From the IMG/VR virus record IMGVR_UViG_2603880160_000004, positions 1-64,000 of that record: a DNA stretch of 64,000 nucleotides; one strand, given 5' to 3'. This DNA is from a virus (lineage: Duplodnaviria; Caudoviricetes). The position numbers and the translations under genes are program-made. Each line of letters begins with the position of its first letter. Position 1 is the first letter of the stretch. The notes under the pieces were generated by a model. That model was not told the DNA's origin. It ran no database searches and worked only from the letters and a program-made list of their open reading frames with translations. Below are positions 12,485-55,168 of this stretch, piece after piece.

Positions 12485-12561
12485 TAGGGTAATGGACTAA
12501 TGGCTAAGTCACTTGCTTTGGGAGCAAGGCATCATGGAGGTTCGAGTCCTCTTTACCCTAC
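12485..12561 (+). tRNA. tRNA-Pro(TGG)
   Basis: Acceptor TAGGGTA/TACCCTA; anticodon arm CTTGC-TTTGGGA-GCAAG; GGTTCGAGTCC. Confidence 0.9.
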
Positions 12562-12568
12562 AAACATA

Positions 12569-12639
12569 TCCGGTTTGGTGCAATGGCAGCATGAAGGTCT
12601 CCAAAACCTTTGATTACAGTTCGAGTCTGTAAACCGGTG
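12569..12639 (+). tRNA. tRNA-Trp(CCA)
   Basis: AAGGT-CTCCAAA-ACCTT; T arm TACAG-TTCGAGT-CTGTA. Confidence 0.9.
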
Positions 12640-12644
12640 CAAAG

Positions 12645-12715
12645 TGTCCTTTAGTATAGTGGTAGTACAGATGGTTTTGGTCCATCTAGCTGTGGTTCGA
12701 GCCCACGAGGGACAA
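12645..12715 (+). tRNA. tRNA-Gln(TTG)
   Basis: TGTCCTT/AGGGACA; GATGG-TTTTGGT-CCATC. Confidence 0.9.
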
Positions 12716-12722
12716 CTAACAT

Positions 12723-12795
12723 GGTGATTATAGCCTAACGGTTAAGGTGGAAGCTTGTGGCGCTTCAGATGTGAGTTCGATTCTCACTAATCACA
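12723..12795 (+). tRNA. tRNA-His(GTG)
   Basis: G-1, GTGATTA/TAATCAC; GAAGC-TTGTGGC-GCTTC. Confidence 0.9.
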
Positions 12796-12800
12796 CATAT

Positions 12801-12901
12801 TGCGGGGAGAGAGGTCTCCCACCGGTCTCATCGGTCTTTAGGTCTTTATAGAGCTAATACCGTTAAGCCGAGTGTCTCAGGATCATTCCCTGACCCCGCA
12901 A
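12801..12901 (+). tRNA. Initiator-tRNA-Met(CAT)-like gene with 33-nt anticodon-loop insertion and reduced D arm
   Basis: TGCGGGG/CCCCGCA-A acceptor; CCGGT-CTCAT[12832-12864]AA-GCCGA; T arm TCAGG-ATCATTC-CCTGA. Confidence 0.55.
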
Positions 12902-12922
12902 CAAAAAAAAGATTTAAAATAT

Positions 12923-12974
12923 TTTGTGATTTCACAACTTATTACTATCTTTGTAAAACAATGGATCTTTGAAA
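12923..12974 (+). promoter_or_regulatory. Bacteroidota promoter plus boxA-like antitermination site
   Basis: TTTG 12923-26, 19 nt, TATCTTTG 12946-53; GATCTTTGAAA at 12964-74. Confidence 0.7.
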
Positions 12975-12989
12975 TATTGAAAATAACAC

Positions 12990-13062
12990 GCCTCGTTAGC
13001 TCAGTTGGTAGAGCAAGTCATTTGTAATGATTAGGTCTGCGGTTCAAGTCCGTAACGAGGCT
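12990..13062 (+). tRNA. tRNA-Thr(TGT)
   Basis: GCCTCGT/ACGAGGC; loop TTTGTAA; canonical D and T arms. Confidence 0.92.
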
Positions 13063-13064
13063 CA

Positions 13065-13275
13065 ACAGGTGACGACGGTGGTGTAACCCCACTGTCTATG
13101 AATCCCAAAAGATCCGTCTGACTCGCGAGGTAGGGCGGTGAGGGTAAAGTTACTATAAGTCGGGACTAATTAACCCAATACGAAAATGTAACCACCGAGT
13201 AAAGTTTGCTGAGACGTGATGTAAATCCAACCAAACTTCGGTCATGATGTACATAGATGGTACGAAAAACCTGTA
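13065..13275 (+). ncRNA. Unidentified multibranch structured RNA
   Basis: ACAGGT/ACCTGT closing stem plus several nested helices; no ORF. Confidence 0.45.
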
Positions 13276-13359
13276 ATTTTTTGAGACTAACTCAACGAGG
13301 ACTTTGTTAACCAGTGCATGACACGGAGGTGCAACTTAAGTTGGGTTGGAATCAAACAC

Positions 13360-13432
13360 GCTTCCTTAGCTCAGTTGGTAGAGCGCAAAACTGTTAATTT
13401 TGAAGTCGGGGGATCGTGACCCTCAGGGAGCG
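13360..13432 (+). tRNA. tRNA-Asn(GTT)
   Basis: GCTTCCT/AGGGAGC; CAAAA-CTGTTAA-TTTTG; atypical T loop ATCGTGA. Confidence 0.88.
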
Positions 13433-13524
13433 CAACGTGATAATCACTCCACGCAAGTGGTAAGCACCCGGCAGTAACACCGGGATGGCAATGTGATTAT
13501 TAAGAGGTAAGGAAAAGACTAATA

Positions 13525-13597
13525 GGACTTGTAGCTCAGCTGGTAGAGCAAGACACTCATAATGTCGAGGTCGGGGGATCATACCCCTCCGAGTCCA
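13525..13597 (+). tRNA. tRNA-CAT (Ile2-lysidine or elongator Met)
   Basis: GGACTTG/CGAGTCC-A; loop CTCATAA; atypical T loop ATCATAC. Confidence 0.85.
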
Positions 13598-13668
13598 CAG
13601 TAGGTGTCCAAAGCATTAAGGACTTAATGGTGGTAAAGAGTTAAATAATTAAGCCCCACCTATGAAAT

Positions 13669-13739
13669 GGACTGTTAGTTAATTAGCATAACGCTGGTTT
13701 GTCACATCAGTATGAGGGGAGCGTAACCCCTACGGTCCG
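13669..13739 (+). tRNA. tRNA-Asp(GTC)
   Basis: GGACTGT/ACGGTCC-G; CTGGT-TTGTCAC-ATCAG; atypical T loop AGCGTAA. Confidence 0.8.
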
Positions 13740-13933
13740 CACGGTTTGGTTAGTCACCGAATAGTATGTCCAATATGATGAGAAATGGTTTGACAACCAT
13801 ATGGAAACGTACATTGACGTATAGGAAGAACGTCAGGGGATATCACCCCGACCTCGTGAGGACGAAATGATTATTCCTAACCCGAAAGGGGACAGCTACG
13901 ACACCTGTGAGTTGGATAAATAAAGGTGTCAAC

Positions 13934-14022
13934 GGAGAGATGGCAGAGTTGGTCTATCGCGACAGTCTTGAAAACTGTAGACTGTAACAGGTCCGTGGGT
14001 TCGAATCCTACTCTCTCCGCCA
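13934..14022 (+). tRNA. tRNA-Ser(TGA)
   Basis: GGAGAGA/TCTCTCC-GCCA; loop CTTGAAA; long variable arm. Confidence 0.93.
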
Positions 14023-14254
14023 GTGCTGAGTTTTGGTTGATGACCGAACACTACTTCTCATCAATTTAGTGGAAACTCAGAGGAATTGACACCTCGGAAA
14101 GACGAGGATTTTTAATCACAAATAAAAATGTGAGTTATAGTAAAGTAGCCAATTATAAGCCAACATAAAGCTGTTGGGTACAGACGGAGTAATTAACCAG
14201 AGTACAGTGCACCGATTGTGATACTATAACAAATACCCATTTGAGTGATTATTT

Positions 14255-14329
14255 GTTCTTGTCGACTAAGGGTTAGGTCACCTCCCTTTCACGGAGGTAA
14301 TACGGGTTCGAATCCCGTCGGGAATACCA
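14255..14329 (+). tRNA. tRNA-Glu(TTC)
   Basis: CCTCC-CTTTCAC-GGAGG; GGTTCGAATCC; encoded CCA. Confidence 0.92.
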
Positions 14330-14380: not shown

Positions 14381-15280
14381 ATGAAAATATTAGTCACAGG
14401 TGGTCATGGTTTATTAGGGACTTATCTACAAAAGGAAATGGATGGGATTTATTTAAGTTCTAAAGATTTCAATTTAACAAAAGAAAGTGAGGTTATTAAA
14501 ATGTATGAAACACATCAACCAGATGTTGTGGTACACTTAGCGGGTAAAGCGGGTGGAATGTTTGATCATATGAAAAATCCATTTTATTATTTGGAAGAGA
14601 ATATCTTAATGAATACATATGTAATGAAATATGCTCACGAATTTAATGTAAAAAAATTCGTAGGTACATTATCAACATGTATATATCGTGATGTTGCTGA
14701 AAATTATCCATTGGTTGAAGAAGAATTATATGAAGGTCAACCACATGAATTTCATATTGGTTATGCTTATTCAAAAAGATTAATGGGTATACATATTAAT
14801 GTGGCAAAAAAACAAGGACTTAATTATTCTTATGTTGTTCCATCTAATTTATATGGTTTATATGAAACGGGTGATATAACAAGAAAACATTTTGTTGGGG
14901 CGTTAATTGATAAAATTATTAAGGCCAATATTAATGGAGATAAGAAAATTACAATTTTAGGTGATGGATCACCATTAAGACAATTCACATATACTGAAGA
15001 TGTTGCGAAAATTATTGCAAGAGTAGTTAAAGAAGATGTTAGTGTTAATATGAATATCGCCACACCTGAAAATTTATCGATAGCCGAAATGGTTAGACAG
15101 GCATTAATTGCGACCGACTCACAACATCTTGAAGTTGAATGGGATACAACACAACCTAATGGTCAATATAGAAAAGATGTTAGTATTGAAAAATTACAAA
15201 CATCATTTCCTGACTTTCAATTTACATCGTTTGTAGATGGAATAAGAAAAACACACGAAGAATTAAAAAAGAAATACTAA
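14381..15280 (+). CDS. fcl: GDP-L-fucose synthase family epimerase/reductase
   Basis: ILVTGGHGLLG, HLAGKAGG, STCIY, YAYSKR, PSNLYG, GDGSPLRQF, QPNGQYRK. Confidence 0.85.
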   Translation: MKILVTGGHGLLGTYLQKEMDGIYLSSKDFNLTKESEVIKMYETHQPDVVVHLAGKAGGMFDHMKNPFYYLEENILMNTYVMKYAHEFNVKKFVGTLSTCIYRDVAENYPLVEEELYEGQPHEFHIGYAYSKRLMGIHINVAKKQGLNYSYVVPSNLYGLYETGDITRKHFVGALIDKIIKANINGDKKITILGDGSPLRQFTYTEDVAKIIARVVKEDVSVNMNIATPENLSIAEMVRQALIATDSQHLEVEWDTTQPNGQYRKDVSIEKLQTSFPDFQFTSFVDGIRKTHEELKKKY

Positions 15281-16760: not shown

Positions 16761-17575
16761 TATTGGCCGTCTATAGTCAATAAAATAAACCATGAAAGTG
16801 GGATAAAGTGAGGAGTCCTTGGTTGGGACAAATTGCGGATTCAGTAATGGATCTCGAGTAGACAAGTGGAATATCATTTGACCTGAAGTAGTGAGGGTAA
16901 CTCCGTAGCGAAAGGGTTGGATGACCAAGCAATCCGAGTTGTTTGGTTGAGATGGGAACATCAACAAGAATAATCCATAGAGTTCATGTAAGAAGTATAG
17001 TTATCCAACTATATCATTGCGTAATTCAATACAATGGTGGTCTTAAAACTGTAGCGTCGTAAGACGGAAAGTATGACAAAAAACAGATGGTGCTGTTAGT
17101 GTCCTTGAATAAATCCTACCAAGGGTTTAATCTCGAAGGAAACCAAAAATATGATGACAGGGATGTCGTATCGGGTAGTTTAGTATCGAGTCGCTCAAAA
17201 GGTGATTTGGCTGGTCACGAACCGCTACCTGGATAATTCGGAAACTAAATTTTTATTTTGGTATAAAAATCATACATAAAAAGAAAAAGTGTTCGTGCGT
17301 GGTGTTCGATAGGTCACTACATAGTTGTGAGGGGTTCACAGCCATAAAGGGTCTCAAGCCCAATATGATTTTTAAGAAAGTTCTCTAAACCCGCAAGGTT
17401 GAATCAGGTCGGCAGATTTGATGAGTGATGAGTATTAATAGAGTAGGATATCACGAAAGGATTGGTTAATCTAATTAACCGTGACTGAAACTTACAAATC
17501 AAAAGTTTGTGGAAATAAGGGGAAACAAATAATCCTTTTAAAGAGTTTCATTAAGACATGTATTCTCAGTGTTTT
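16761..17575 (+). ncRNA. Large (~800 nt) structured ncRNA, probably GOLLD
   Basis: ORF-poor, GC-raised, many hairpins; promoter TTTG-N19-TATCTTTG (16678-16708), boxA GTTCTTTGA (16744); motifs ACAGATGGTGCTG and terminal GTATTCTCAG resemble GOLLD as recalled; near tRNAs. Confidence 0.6.
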
Positions 17576-17668: not shown

Positions 17669-17702
17669 ATGCATATTCAAAAAATTTTTGTATATTTGTT
17701 TT

Positions 17703-18452
17703 ATGAGATTAGTATGTATATCAGATACCCACAGCCTTCATCATCAGATGGAACATCCTTTACCAAAAGGTGATGTGTTAATCCATGCTGGCGATATCTC
17801 AAATAAAGGTGGTGAAAAAGACGTTACCGATTTTATTCATTGGTTCCAAAACTTAGGTGGTTGGGACGCTAAAATATTCATATCAGGTAATCATGATTAT
17901 TGTTTTGAAAGAATTAATAAACCTTCTTATAAGGGCACATATGGATGGTTAAGTAAATTAATGTCACCCGAGAATTTATCTCAATCAGATGTAACTTATT
18001 TGGAGGATAGTTTTATTACAATTGAAACTCCCGAGTTTTCAAGACCTATCAAATTTTATGGTAGTCCTTGGCAACCATGGTTCTACGATTGGGCTTTTAA
18101 CTTACCAAGATTAGGTGTTGAATTACAGGAGAAATGGAATATGATTCCTGAGGATACCGATGTATTAATTACACATAGTCCACCAAATGGATATGGTGAT
18201 TTAGTTAATAACTGGAGACAACCAAATACACACGTTGGGTGTGAATGTTTAACAAGTAGAATAGGTCAAATAAAACCATTAGTCAATGTATTTGGTCATA
18301 TTCATGAAGGTTATGGTATTGATTATGAGAAAAATACCTTATTTGTAAATGCCTCAATTTGTACTGATAGGTATGAACCAACTAATAAACCAATCGTCAT
18401 TGATTTAGTTGAAATTAATGGAAAAATAAATGCAATATATGTTGAAGAATAA
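17703..18452 (+). CDS. Calcineurin-like metallophosphoesterase (MPPED-type)
   Basis: ISDTH, IHAGD, GNHD, YGSPWQP, LITHSPP, FGHIHE; likely start at 17703. Confidence 0.9.
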   Translation: MRLVCISDTHSLHHQMEHPLPKGDVLIHAGDISNKGGEKDVTDFIHWFQNLGGWDAKIFISGNHDYCFERINKPSYKGTYGWLSKLMSPENLSQSDVTYLEDSFITIETPEFSRPIKFYGSPWQPWFYDWAFNLPRLGVELQEKWNMIPEDTDVLITHSPPNGYGDLVNNWRQPNTHVGCECLTSRIGQIKPLVNVFGHIHEGYGIDYEKNTLFVNASICTDRYEPTNKPIVIDLVEINGKINAIYVEE

Positions 18453-18456
18453 TGAA

Positions 18457-19119
18457 ATGGTAAGTGTGGTAATATCCACAAGAAAGATTGATCCGACATA
18501 TTACGACCATGTAAAAAGAATGTTTTCTCATCCGAACACTGAAATATTGATATATGAAAATGACGGTCAAATGTCCTTAACACAAGTTTATAACAAAGGG
18601 TTAAAAGAAAGTGTTAATGACATCGTTATTTTCATGCATGATGACCTTATTTTGGAGACATCAAATATGACACCTAAGATTGTTAAGTTATTTGAGAAAC
18701 ATCCTGAATATGGAATTATTGGAATTGCAGGGACCGATAAATTAACGAGTGGTATGTGGTGGCAAAACCGTGAAAATATGTTTGGTGTGGTTGGTCATAT
18801 CAATGAAGGTAAAAGACACGTTAATCACTATTCTAAGGGGGTATTTAACGATGTTCTTAAAGATGTTGTAATTGTGGATGGTTTGTTCTTTATGGTTCGT
18901 AAAAGTCTCATAAAGAAGGAATTTAACGAACAGTTTGAAGGGTTTCATTTCTATGATATTTCATTCTGTGTTGAGAACTATTTGGAAGGTGTTAAGATTG
19001 GATTAACCACCAAATTTGGAGTTACCCATAAATCTATAGGTATGACTAACAAACAATGGGAAAAGAATAAACTACTATTTGAGGCACTATTCGAAAAACG
19101 GTTACCCTTGACAATTTAG
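18457..19119 (+). CDS. GT-A fold glycosyltransferase-like protein
   Basis: YNKGL, IFMHDD, IIGIAG, VDGLF, GFHFYD. Confidence 0.8.
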   Translation: MVSVVISTRKIDPTYYDHVKRMFSHPNTEILIYENDGQMSLTQVYNKGLKESVNDIVIFMHDDLILETSNMTPKIVKLFEKHPEYGIIGIAGTDKLTSGMWWQNRENMFGVVGHINEGKRHVNHYSKGVFNDVLKDVVIVDGLFFMVRKSLIKKEFNEQFEGFHFYDISFCVENYLEGVKIGLTTKFGVTHKSIGMTNKQWEKNKLLFEALFEKRLPLTI

Positions 19120-19430: not shown

Positions 19431-19829
19431 GGGGACGCCTTGGATTTGATTTCAGGTATCAGGAGTAAATGGCACGTAGTCAGAATTCATCTATGACTTT
19501 AATCCACGGTGAAGAAAATTAAACGACAACGTTTACAACACAATGGAAATTGCAGGTGTTCTTGCAACTTCTAAAGTAGCAGCCTAATTAGATTAGCCTC
19601 TACGCACGGGTCGACGGACATATAACCTTGGAACAGAAGTCCTTACAGTGTAATACCACTTAGAGTGTTGGAGCATGACCTGATTGTCTCTTTAAAATTT
19701 AGTCAGGGACAAGTTTGTTGTTTTTCTGTGTATGAAATCAAATATTTGTCAATTGAGAACCAATTGAATAAACGTGTAGTCATTTATTGTTGAACAGGAA
19801 AGACAAGGGTTCGACTCCCTTCGTCTCCA
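19431..19829 (+). ncRNA. ssrA: tmRNA
   Basis: GGGGACG/CGTCTCC-A acceptor with G3-U70; GGATTTGA; T arm GGTTCGACTCC; tag ORF 19525-19587 DNVYNTMEIAGVLATSKVAA*. Confidence 0.9.
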
Positions 19830-19833
19830 CTTT

Positions 19834-19861: not shown

Positions 19862-19957
19862 AAAACAACAAAAGGTCCGAAGACCCTTTGCCGAGATTTA
19901 GAATACCTCCTTTTCGTTATTATATTATCGTCGATGGTGACCAAACCATAAACTCTA
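19862..19957 (-). ncRNA. Candidate late small RNA complementary to the 16S rRNA 3' end
   Basis: TATTTATA at 19959-66 (-); contains AAAAGGAGGTATTCTA; ends in GGGTC-TTCG-GACCT-TTT hairpin. Confidence 0.45.
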
Positions 19958-19969
19958 ATATAAATATGT

Positions 19970-20557
19970 TTATAATTTAGAACGGAGGTGTTTTGTTACT
20001 ATTTTTTTAATGAAATTTTCTTCTAACGCCGGTGCGTTCGGTGTTAACGCCCATTGGCCAGTTTCAGACCTATAATAATATTTTGTTCCACCCCAATCTG
20101 TAATCACTTCAAAATTATTACTTCCTTTACATTTCCATTTTCCTTGAGATCTGTTGTTTTTCCCAATGTATAAGAAATCACCATTTCCCCAAAACGTAAA
20201 TTCTTCACCTGTTTTGTCAACAAAAGAATATGCATTTGGATTGTCAATTGTTTGTTGTAAATTTTTACCATTTCCACCACTATTCTTAATACAATTAAAA
20301 ACTGATGGGTCAATAGTTTGTGATGGTTTTGATAGTTGAGGTGATTGATCTGGTTGAGGTGAGAGTTGTGAAATATTTTTTTCAAAGTTTTCGTAGTCCC
20401 CCAAACCCAAAGATTGTGAATACTTGTCAAAAAATCTTTTTCTTTTGTCTGTAGTATCCATCTTTAGTTTGAATTTTTCATAATCCAATCCTAATTGAGA
20501 CACATCAAATTTATTTGTAAATTTATTCCAAATGTTTTGTAATTCTTTTTCGTTCAT
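19970..20557 (-). CDS. Hypothetical late protein
   Basis: TATTTATA upstream; C-terminal LEENFIKKIV tag; G.F..G.WK motif shared with 48180-48899. Confidence 0.7.
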   Translation of the reverse strand: MNEKELQNIWNKFTNKFDVSQLGLDYEKFKLKMDTTDKRKRFFDKYSQSLGLGDYENFEKNISQLSPQPDQSPQLSKPSQTIDPSVFNCIKNSGGNGKNLQQTIDNPNAYSFVDKTGEEFTFWGNGDFLYIGKNNRSQGKWKCKGSNNFEVITDWGGTKYYYRSETGQWALTPNAPALEENFIKKIVTKHLRSKL

Positions 20558-20569
20558 ATTATATAAATA

Positions 20570-23261: not shown

Positions 23262-23343
23262 AGTGTATAAATATCCAAAAAAATGTTTGAAATTAGGTTG
23301 GATATCCCAATAAAATACCTATTTTTGTTTAAAATATCAATAT

Positions 23344-24289: not shown

Positions 24290-24300
24290 ATGTATAAATA

Positions 24301-43226: not shown

Positions 43227-43306
43227 ATCTATATAAATATCTCTTTATGTATAATAAAAAACCCCTCATTTCTGAAGGGTTTATCTACGACTTTATAATA
43301 ATATTG

Positions 43307-48899: not shown

Positions 48900-48916
48900 G
48901 TTATATAAATATTATG

Positions 48917-53452: not shown

Positions 53453-53529
53453 ATCTTATAAATATCTTGTATACCAAGAGTTCCTGGGGTGGTATAAATA
53501 AAAAACCCTCCATATAGGAGGGTCTTCAA

Positions 53530-55056: not shown

Positions 55057-55168
55057 ATGATATAAATACCCATAATTGGATATATATTTCTAATATAATG
55101 AAATTGTCCCCCGATATATAGGGAATATGGTATGAATTGGAAATATAGTTCTCATTTACCCTAAAAAA

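Follow-up and report, generated by a model that had tools for sequence, protein, structure and literature searches.

A conserved phage small RNA with a start-less, extended Shine-Dalgarno-like stretch: a candidate ligand of the 16S rRNA tail in Bacteroidota

We describe a small RNA (sRNA) element encoded in a 64,000-nucleotide stretch of DNA (hereafter the window) from a virus of the class Caudoviricetes (Duplodnaviria). The window consists of the first 64 kb of the 97-kb IMG/VR virus record IMGVR_UViG_2603880160_000004 (CheckV completeness 27%). The element lies on the minus strand, from 19966 to 19862, between the stop codon of a 195-aa open reading frame (ORF) and a transfer-messenger RNA (tmRNA) gene, and its conservation among phages suggests that it is a self-contained gene for a small non-coding RNA of approximately 95-100 nt. 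It carries an extended Shine-Dalgarno (SD)-like stretch that is complementary to the whole single-stranded 16S rRNA 3' tail of the Chitinophagales type and that is followed by a terminator. We give about an even chance to the proposal that this sRNA imitates the initiation region of rpsU, the gene of ribosomal protein bS21, while lacking a start codon, and that it would bind the anti-SD tail, compete with the host rpsU mRNA and displace bS21.

On the minus strand, the order of the unit is TATTTATA at 19966-19959, then a hairpin and AACGAAAAGGAGGUAUUCUAAAUCUCG, then a UUCG-loop hairpin of 12 bp (19893-19866) and finally UUUUAUAG. The TATTTAT box (19960-19966), a putative phage promoter, starts 3 nt past the stop codon of the 195-aa ORF (19970-20557, minus strand) and forms the sharp 5' edge of conservation. 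It is followed by a 5' hairpin predicted by RNAalifold (19930-19953; GUUUAUGGU pairing with ACCAUCGAC in the window) with a conserved apical loop UUUGGUC, and by a linker (19915-19929) made of GAUAA, a variable stretch and AACG. Across the family alignment, GATAA and AACG change little or not at all; the stretch between them differs in length. The 14-mer GAATACCTCCTTTT is found on the plus strand at 19901-19914, and hence the complete SD-like stretch, AAAAGGAGGUAUUCUA, occupies 19899-19914 on the minus strand. An invariant AUCUC (19893-19897) may form a 5-bp mini-hairpin with GAGGU (19905-19909), also according to RNAalifold. The unit closes with an intrinsic terminator (19862-19893) detected by a terminator scan, in which a G+C-rich hairpin with a 12-bp stem and a 4-nt UUCG loop, running from 19893 to 19866, passes directly into the U tract UUGUUUUA (tail TTTTATAGAA) on the transcribed strand. 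The 121-nt fold has an energy of -33 kcal/mol (z = -4.4). The tmRNA gene (19431-19832, plus strand; ARAGORN and Rfam) faces the element, as claimed in a preliminary description made from the letters of the window, and all other features listed in that description were found where it had placed them.

The preliminary description had also remarked that no start codon follows the SD-like stretch. No ATG or GTG is present between the core and the terminator hairpin in the window, and ATG, GTG or TTG are absent 3-13 nt after the core from all 44 distinct sequences of the family described below. An SD site would have a start codon about 4-10 nt downstream and a conserved frame behind it, whereas here the covarying terminator comes next; as there is no ORF downstream, the stretch is not part of an rpsU initiation region. 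What stands 6-9 nt past the core, in 44 of 44 distinct sequences, is an AUC. The long anti-SD complement, this spacer to a non-start AUC and the stable hairpin are the reasons why the element looks like a translation initiation region minus its start codon and gene.

This arrangement might still be translated, either as a micro-ORF read from the 5' hairpin, (M/L)(A)VWSPL..., or as a stop-less mini-message starting at the AUC and feeding the adjacent tmRNA. A TTG or ATG precedes the VWSP frame in 23 of 24 sequences, the AUC is at canonical SD-start spacing throughout the family, and a phage tmRNA adjoins. However, the hairpin frame ends at different places, its length ranging between 6 and more than 42 codons, its start is a TTG buried in the stem, and one homologue (L101) has a 1-nt deletion inside VWSP. 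An ATG within the 5' hairpin, opening a 9-codon frame, is present in the window sequence only and is not conserved in relatives. AUC is a very poor start codon, and the covarying terminator stem that follows it leaves no conserved peptide. We therefore consider translation most improbable. A leader peptide or micro-ORF, the latter an outcome that the preliminary description had listed as refuting its reading, is rejected for lack of a frame and a length conserved among homologues.

Taken by itself, the window lends the motif only modest statistical weight: AAGGAGGT occurs twice against 1.68 expected, and the 14-mer with at most one mismatch once against 0.05 expected, a count that 5 of 100 shuffles also reach. 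It is conservation across relatives, and not these statistics, that leads us to regard the motif as non-chance. The exact 16-mer was found in 107 viral contig stretches, 16 of which share with the window a unit of about 114 nt at 78-90% identity (blastn). The remaining stretches displayed no homology to the unit, three of them having 25-nt matches only. Since a set retrieved with the 16-mer cannot test the motif itself, we also searched with a 15-mer from the 5' hairpin, which recovered at least 17 further loci, all of them with GGAGGU and none with the exact 16-mer. Meanwhile, a tmRNA-specific pattern, independent of the element, yielded 94 loci (74 new). On these 74, a covariance model (R1) built from 24 distinct sequences detected 31 copies (20 distinct sequences) scoring 63.9-112.6 bits. 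Including the window, the family comprises at least 65 copies and at least 44 distinct sequences, all in phage contigs (up to 335 kb). All 44 distinct sequences retain the SD core, including those from the hairpin-found and tmRNA-found loci, so that the conservation of the motif, which the preliminary description wished to see checked, is borne out. At least 12 nt of the 16S-tail complement are kept family-wide, against the 15 that pair in the window. Whole-record searches of three phage records gave one strong copy each (96.9, 117.5 and 99.7 bits).

These comparisons bear on whether the element is simply the 3' untranslated region and terminator of the 195-aa ORF, with a fortuitous SD-like run. 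Its start so close to the ORF stop, a hairpin that makes a good terminator and the modest statistics of the window alone would all fit. Nevertheless, at least three unrelated ORF ends precede the unit, and conservation begins at the TATTTAT box, not within the ORF, regardless of which ORF lies upstream. None of the 24 aligned sequences departs from the box, and the 5 columns upstream of it are not conserved. The unit is 78-90% identical where its flanks are not, its 5' hairpin covaries, and the motif is present in every distinct sequence, which makes this explanation very unlikely. The last codons of the ORF contain an anti-SD-like AACACCTCCGTT (19979-19991, minus strand), some 75 nt upstream of the SD-like stretch; this is coding sequence, and copies of the element that lie behind other ORFs do not preserve it.

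The unit had no match in Rfam 15 at gathering score, and at E-values up to 10 only chance-level overlaps appeared, the nearest being SraC_RyeA with 17.1 bits against a gathering score of 37. No match was found by blastn against named phage records. Protein searches with the 195-aa neighbour in viral contigs and with the nearby epimerase in genome contigs returned nothing. R1 found no copy among the best 150 candidates scored per genome in five Chitinophagales genomes, which is a soft negative. Searches of openly accessible main texts, among them a review of phage sRNAs and the paper on bS21 phages, found no description of this RNA. R1 also scored weakly in relatives that lack the element (19.8 and 17.0 bits); these hits were discarded, as they are actually an ORF 3' end plus terminator. 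One contig has, roughly 500 nt away from its full copy, a second, partial match of 32 nt (L085:8693-8724) that is 97% identical to the terminator end of the element. Several sRNA-less relatives (L491, L499, L503, L507, L513, L517 and others) have a convergent small cysteine-rich ORF, MGTDCNICSNKCFG..., just downstream of tmRNA.

Pairing in the alignments informs both the structure and the strand of the element. In the alignment of the first set (A2), 97.9% of cells pair, compared with 42.9-63.9% when the partners are slid. In that of the tmRNA-found set (A4), which was fitted to R1, 97.4% pair, and slid partners reach 41.5-63.9% over both sets. Two-sided changes are seen at 4 pairs in A2; in A4 they are seen at 8 of 24, a number reached by 0 of 500 shuffles. 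Of the 10 pairs of the 5' hairpin, 3 have two-sided changes in A2 and 6 in A4, and the terminator stem exists in three compensating versions (GGGUC-uucg-GACCU, GAGGC-gcaa-GCCUC and GGGGUC-cuaaa-GACCUC). That the minus strand is the sense strand follows from the G-U pairs, which turn into A-C if the plus strand is read, and from the U tract, which trails the hairpin only in the minus-strand reading. The RNA thus bears an SD-like and not an anti-SD-like sequence. Both sides of the GAGGU/AUCUC helix are invariant, so covariation speaks neither for nor against it. An outer helix between the bases just past the box and the linker, seen in single-sequence folds, was left out of the model because it overlaps the presumed promoter and cannot be aligned column-wise.

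We retrieved 16S rRNA 3' ends by the universal primer site plus GAAYACCTCCTTT, obtaining at least 120, nearly all from Bacteroidota. All 120 listed ends read GGCTG-GAA(C/T)ACCTCCTTT, the constant part of which is given by the construction of the pattern, and they agree with the Bacteroidota tail given in the preliminary description. The C/T position is GAACACC in 85 and GAATACC in 35. Among the matches listed, the tail with GAATACCTCCTTTT is that of Chitinophagales (Flavihumibacter, Ferruginibacter, Niabella, Chitinophaga, Sediminibacterium and Saprospiraceae), Sphingobacteriales have GAATACC...TTTCT, and Flavobacteriales mostly GAACACC...TTTCT. In a sample of the order of Ferruginibacter, the tail was present in 54 of 151 genomes, and 61 of 62 matches were GAATACC.

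Against the Chitinophagaceae tail, the sRNA of the window pairs along the full 15 nt, in 15 contiguous pairs, with an energy of -22.0 kcal/mol. The helix of about 15 bp that had been anticipated is borne out, and it extends well beyond the CCUCC core. With a Flavobacterium tail the energy is -15.9 kcal/mol. The site is the strongest tail complement on either strand of the window, the runner-up reaching -16.0 kcal/mol. It is far past the -13 kcal/mol of the published criterion for an rpsU-type SD, which also asks for the strongest site of the genome (PMC9976891), whereas the upstream regions of the 71 window ORFs have a median of -1.4 kcal/mol, with none reaching -13 and one reaching -8, so that the genes of the window are otherwise SD-less, as the preliminary description had stated. 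All 20 distinct tmRNA-found sequences pair with a real tail type at -19.0 to -24.4 kcal/mol. Family variants fit real tails through G for A opposite C or U, three A's plus G opposite UUUC, and CC extending into GG. The conserved hairpin loop was also considered as a second 16S contact and rejected: its best sites vary by taxon, and GACCAAA is absent in the six 16S sequences reported.

As the preliminary description had supposed, the best-matching order may indicate the host, and the host of the window phage is most likely a member of the Chitinophagales. A Bacteroidota host is suggested by the TAnnTTTG boxes described below, by the SD-less ORFs of the window and by the identity of the phage bS21, which is 47-54% to Chitinophagales bS21 and 40-46% to the bS21 of five other Bacteroidota genomes, a weak hint. 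The exact 3' end of the phage tmRNA is also found in Collinsella and Planctomycetota tmRNAs; as an indicator of host this 23-mer was dismissed, its exact matches being mostly from these two groups and amounting to uninformative convergence.

The purine-rich stretch could instead be the seed of an ordinary base-pairing regulatory sRNA, acting on a CU-rich site in a host or phage mRNA, with the 16S match as a by-product. A 5' hairpin, an open seed and a terminator are the typical layout of a trans-acting sRNA, and seeds of 7-8 nt would escape the pattern searches made. The conserved complement is 12-16 nt long, however, and exactly spans the free 16S tail, and the variants at the A/G position and in the A-tract each suit a real tail type. 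We found no partner for the SD stretch beyond chance, intramolecular or phage-encoded. In five phage records, perfect complements were only the opposite strands of the elements themselves, and near-matches with at most two mismatches (1, 6, 8, 7 and 3) were close to reversed-pattern controls (1, 4, 4, 2 and 3). Five Chitinophagales genomes contained eight perfect complements, 1-2 per genome, five of which coincide with the retrieved 16S loci. We consider a regulatory sRNA of this kind unlikely.

Another alternative is that the SD-like stretch titrates or guides a protein, such as an S1-dependent or RegB-like endoribonuclease, a CsrA-like factor or bS21. RNA decoys of such logic exist, among them CsrB/RsmZ and 6S RNA, and the invariant AACG and AUCUCG flanks and the conserved hairpin loop are left unexplained by 16S pairing alone. 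CsrB-type decoys carry many GGA loops, whereas the element has a single GGAGG per RNA. Its variation follows Watson-Crick and wobble fit to real tails: U or C faces A or G, and UUUC faces three A's plus G. The analysis yielded no candidate protein, although no search for CsrA or RegB homologues was made. We rate a protein decoy as distinctly unlikely. None of the four rivals (translation, a plain 3' untranslated region, an mRNA-targeting sRNA and a protein decoy) accounts equally well for how long the complementarity is, where it lies, how unique it is and how its variants are distributed. Our proposal shares with 6S RNA and CsrB/RsmZ the common logic of an RNA that mimics the nucleic-acid ligand of a machine and occupies it without being used. 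It differs from them in that the target is an rRNA tail and not a protein, reached through a single site and not through repeats.

The case for an rpsU mimic draws on the unusual ribosome of the Bacteroidia. In Flavobacterium johnsoniae, the 16S tail is buried by bS21, bS18 and bS6, rpsU alone has an extended SD, and bS21-free ribosomes prefer rpsU (PMC9976891, PMC13000453, PMC13000457); rpsU is described as autoregulated via such ribosomes (PMC9976891). The 13-bp SD-ASD (anti-SD) helix of rpsU mRNA and bS21 clash, and ribosomes with this helix lack the protein (PMC13000457). The sRNA resembles the extended SD of Bacteroidia rpsU in being a very long complement of the 16S tail in an otherwise SD-less phylum (McNutt 2023, PMC9976891; Arpin 2026, PMC13000457; Naeem 2026, PMC13000453). 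In four Chitinophagaceae genera, host rpsU displayed AAAGGAGGUAU 7 nt before its ATG, forming 11-12 pairs at -16.1 to -16.2 kcal/mol, and this core is common to the sRNA. Unlike rpsU, the sRNA is encoded by a phage, has no start codon or gene, and runs directly into a terminator; by eye, it has no similarity to the four rpsU leaders beyond the SD. With 15 pairs at -22.0 kcal/mol against 11 pairs at -16.1 kcal/mol, the phage RNA would beat the rpsU SD by about 6 kcal/mol.

The phages that carry the element also encode bS21 of their own. A protein of 62-63 aa with a KA(I/V)Y motif near its C-terminus is present in all four element-bearing records that are at least 70% complete (335, 324, 269 and 234 kb; L453:1483-1674, plus strand; L454:1471-1662, minus strand; also L469 and L470), in each case with no SD upstream of its gene. 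The two element-bearing records without it are fragments, 27% and 54% complete, and no S21 domain was found in the 97-kb record of the window, which is the former. The phages come from lake metagenomes. Chen et al. described bS21 phages of up to 331 kb from freshwater lakes (PMC9723584), and, judged by size, habitat, host phylum and bS21, the element-bearing phages are these freshwater bS21 jumbo phages (~330 kb) of Chen et al. 2022. That study concerns the protein, which would act on the same 30S platform pocket as the sRNA, and 'tmRNA', 'small RNA' and 'non-coding' have no hits in the main text of PMC9723584. McNutt et al. speculated that bS21 phages encode a product that aids bS21 exchange (PMC9976891).

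We propose that the sRNA imitates the region where rpsU translation starts and that, late in infection, it would pair with the 16S tail on the 30S platform. It would out-compete host rpsU mRNA for bS21-free subunits, so that host feedback resynthesis of bS21 would be blocked, and it would keep or push bS21 off the ribosome, clearing the site for the phage bS21 made from its SD-less gene. We infer these two effects from the observations that a long SD-ASD helix and bS21 are mutually exclusive in Bacteroidia and that only rpsU uses the pairing. The preliminary description had suggested a 30S-binding or decoy RNA, and of the four outcomes that it named as refuting, the three that were checked did not come true. 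Its tail complement is real, but a general decoy needs refining, since Bacteroidota mRNAs do not use SD sequences: the sensible competitor would be rpsU mRNA, and the displaced protein bS21.

Several observations weigh against this proposal. The tail is buried in intact Bacteroidia ribosomes, and binding would thus need subunits without bS21 or its active displacement. Folding predicts that the GGAGG core lies mostly in the weak AUCUC mini-hairpin, with an unpaired probability of 0.22 compared with 0.82 for the A-tract, so that access would need a toehold on the latter. In the Saprospiraceae genome examined, rpsU has no SD, and only about half of Chitinophagales satisfy the rpsU criterion (McNutt et al., PMC9976891); for this reason, the part of the proposal that concerns rpsU competition cannot hold for every host. 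Moreover, 18 related tmRNA loci with at least 2 kb of sequence past the tmRNA carry no copy of the sRNA, which indicates that the RNA is clade-specific and not indispensable. In the relatives, the phage bS21 gene is about 36-38 kb from the element. Finally, the apparent match of sRNA variants to 16S tail types is suggestive only.

A more far-reaching version is that the sRNA is a viral ribosome-remodelling factor, and the first RNA known to act via the 16S anti-SD tail. Its helix of 13-16 bp would evict host bS21 and silence the rpsU feedback, after which either the phage bS21 would take the site or bS21-free ribosomes would specialise for the apparently leaderless late mRNAs of the phage (TATTTAT, 5-6 nt, ATG). 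The second variant is allowed by a preprint in which Escherichia coli ribosomes lacking uS2 and bS21 were better at translating leaderless mRNA (PMC10491246). We put this version forward tentatively, as a possibility that is more doubtful than not.

A functional parallel, SprF1 from a Staphylococcus aureus prophage, is a small RNA with a purine-rich stretch; it binds ribosomes and competes with mRNA loading at initiation (PMC8938821, PMC10579593). The sRNA likewise has an exposed purine stretch complementary to rRNA, the sequence prerequisite of ribosome-associated non-coding RNAs. SprF1 differs in its additional role as an antitoxin and in restraining translation generally, in a host that uses SDs; it is reported at the subunit interface (PMC8938821). 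The sRNA, known from its sequence, belongs to phages of an SD-ignoring host, and its predicted effect is specific to the bS21/rpsU circuit. In the searchable papers we found no counterpart that takes the anti-SD tail of an SD-blind ribosome as its target, is tied to bS21 or is carried by a jumbo phage of virulent type.

The proposed late timing is based on the TATTTAT box. In the window, TATTTATA occurs 29 times against 15.3 expected, and TATTTAT stands 4-7 nt before the ATG of 8 of the 71 ORFs, one of which is an endolysin-like gene. Examples near ORF ATGs, all on the minus strand, are at 20562-20568, 23266-23272, 24293-24299, 43232-43238, 48904-48910, 53457-53463 and 55061-55067. The box likewise precedes the phage bS21 gene in two of four relatives, and phage bS21 is expressed alongside structural genes (Chen et al., PMC9723584). 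From its position before ORFs and bS21 genes and from this co-expression, we infer that TATTTAT is probably a phage promoter, active late and yielding nearly leaderless mRNAs; transcription of the sRNA from its box would then place the 5' end of the RNA at about 19953. Contigs of four metatranscriptomes cover the tmRNA (19432-19827), none extends over 19862-19958, and one 3x contig spans 19959-20020; such contigs are blind to small RNAs and to transcript ends, and speak neither for nor against transcription of the element. Boxes of another kind, TAnnTTTG (e.g., TATCTTTG and TACCTTTG), are located before plus-strand ORFs at approximately 36470, 56225, 57140, 58820, 61110 and 62050. TAnnTTTG is the -7 motif of Bacteroidota sigma-A, and the ORFs behind these boxes probably belong to the early genes, transcribed by the polymerase of the host.

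The element is the last member of a conserved RNA island composed of a tRNA array, a GOLLD RNA, the tmRNA and the facing sRNA, which displayed the same order in four relatives. In the window, the array comprises 10 tRNA genes (Pro, Trp, Gln, His, Thr, Asn, Met, Asp, Ser and Glu; 12486-14329, plus strand) and is followed by a gene for a nucleotide-sugar epimerase (14381-15280). The GOLLD RNA (17171-17572, plus strand) matches Rfam RF02032 with 302 bits, and with 290-322 bits in the four relatives. Between it and the tmRNA lie genes for a metallophosphoesterase and a family-2 glycosyltransferase (17688-19119, plus strand). The predicted tag of the tmRNA is DNVYNTMEIAGVLATSKVAA, and the metatranscriptome contigs that cover this gene, from lakes and estuaries, include some with at least 99% identity.

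Whatever the mechanism, these findings reveal an undescribed structured RNA family within a conserved phage RNA island. Bacteroidota retain a perfect anti-SD tail hidden under bS21, and the only known use of this tail is to regulate rpsU by feedback. A bS21 gene of their own is found in many phages of aquatic habitats, and its product would have to replace the host protein. The sRNA, gene-less, conserved, matching the tail as strongly as is possible and carried by just these phages, is a concrete candidate for a product that promotes this exchange, and it is testable in Flavobacterium johnsoniae, for which bS21-depleted and ASD-ablated ribosomes exist. If it were indeed such a product, the sequence of the sRNA would also report the 16S tail type of the host, and hence its order, so that hosts could be predicted from the sRNA. 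Viruses would then have a new route to ribosome reprogramming, in which the viral factor is an RNA ligand for rRNA.

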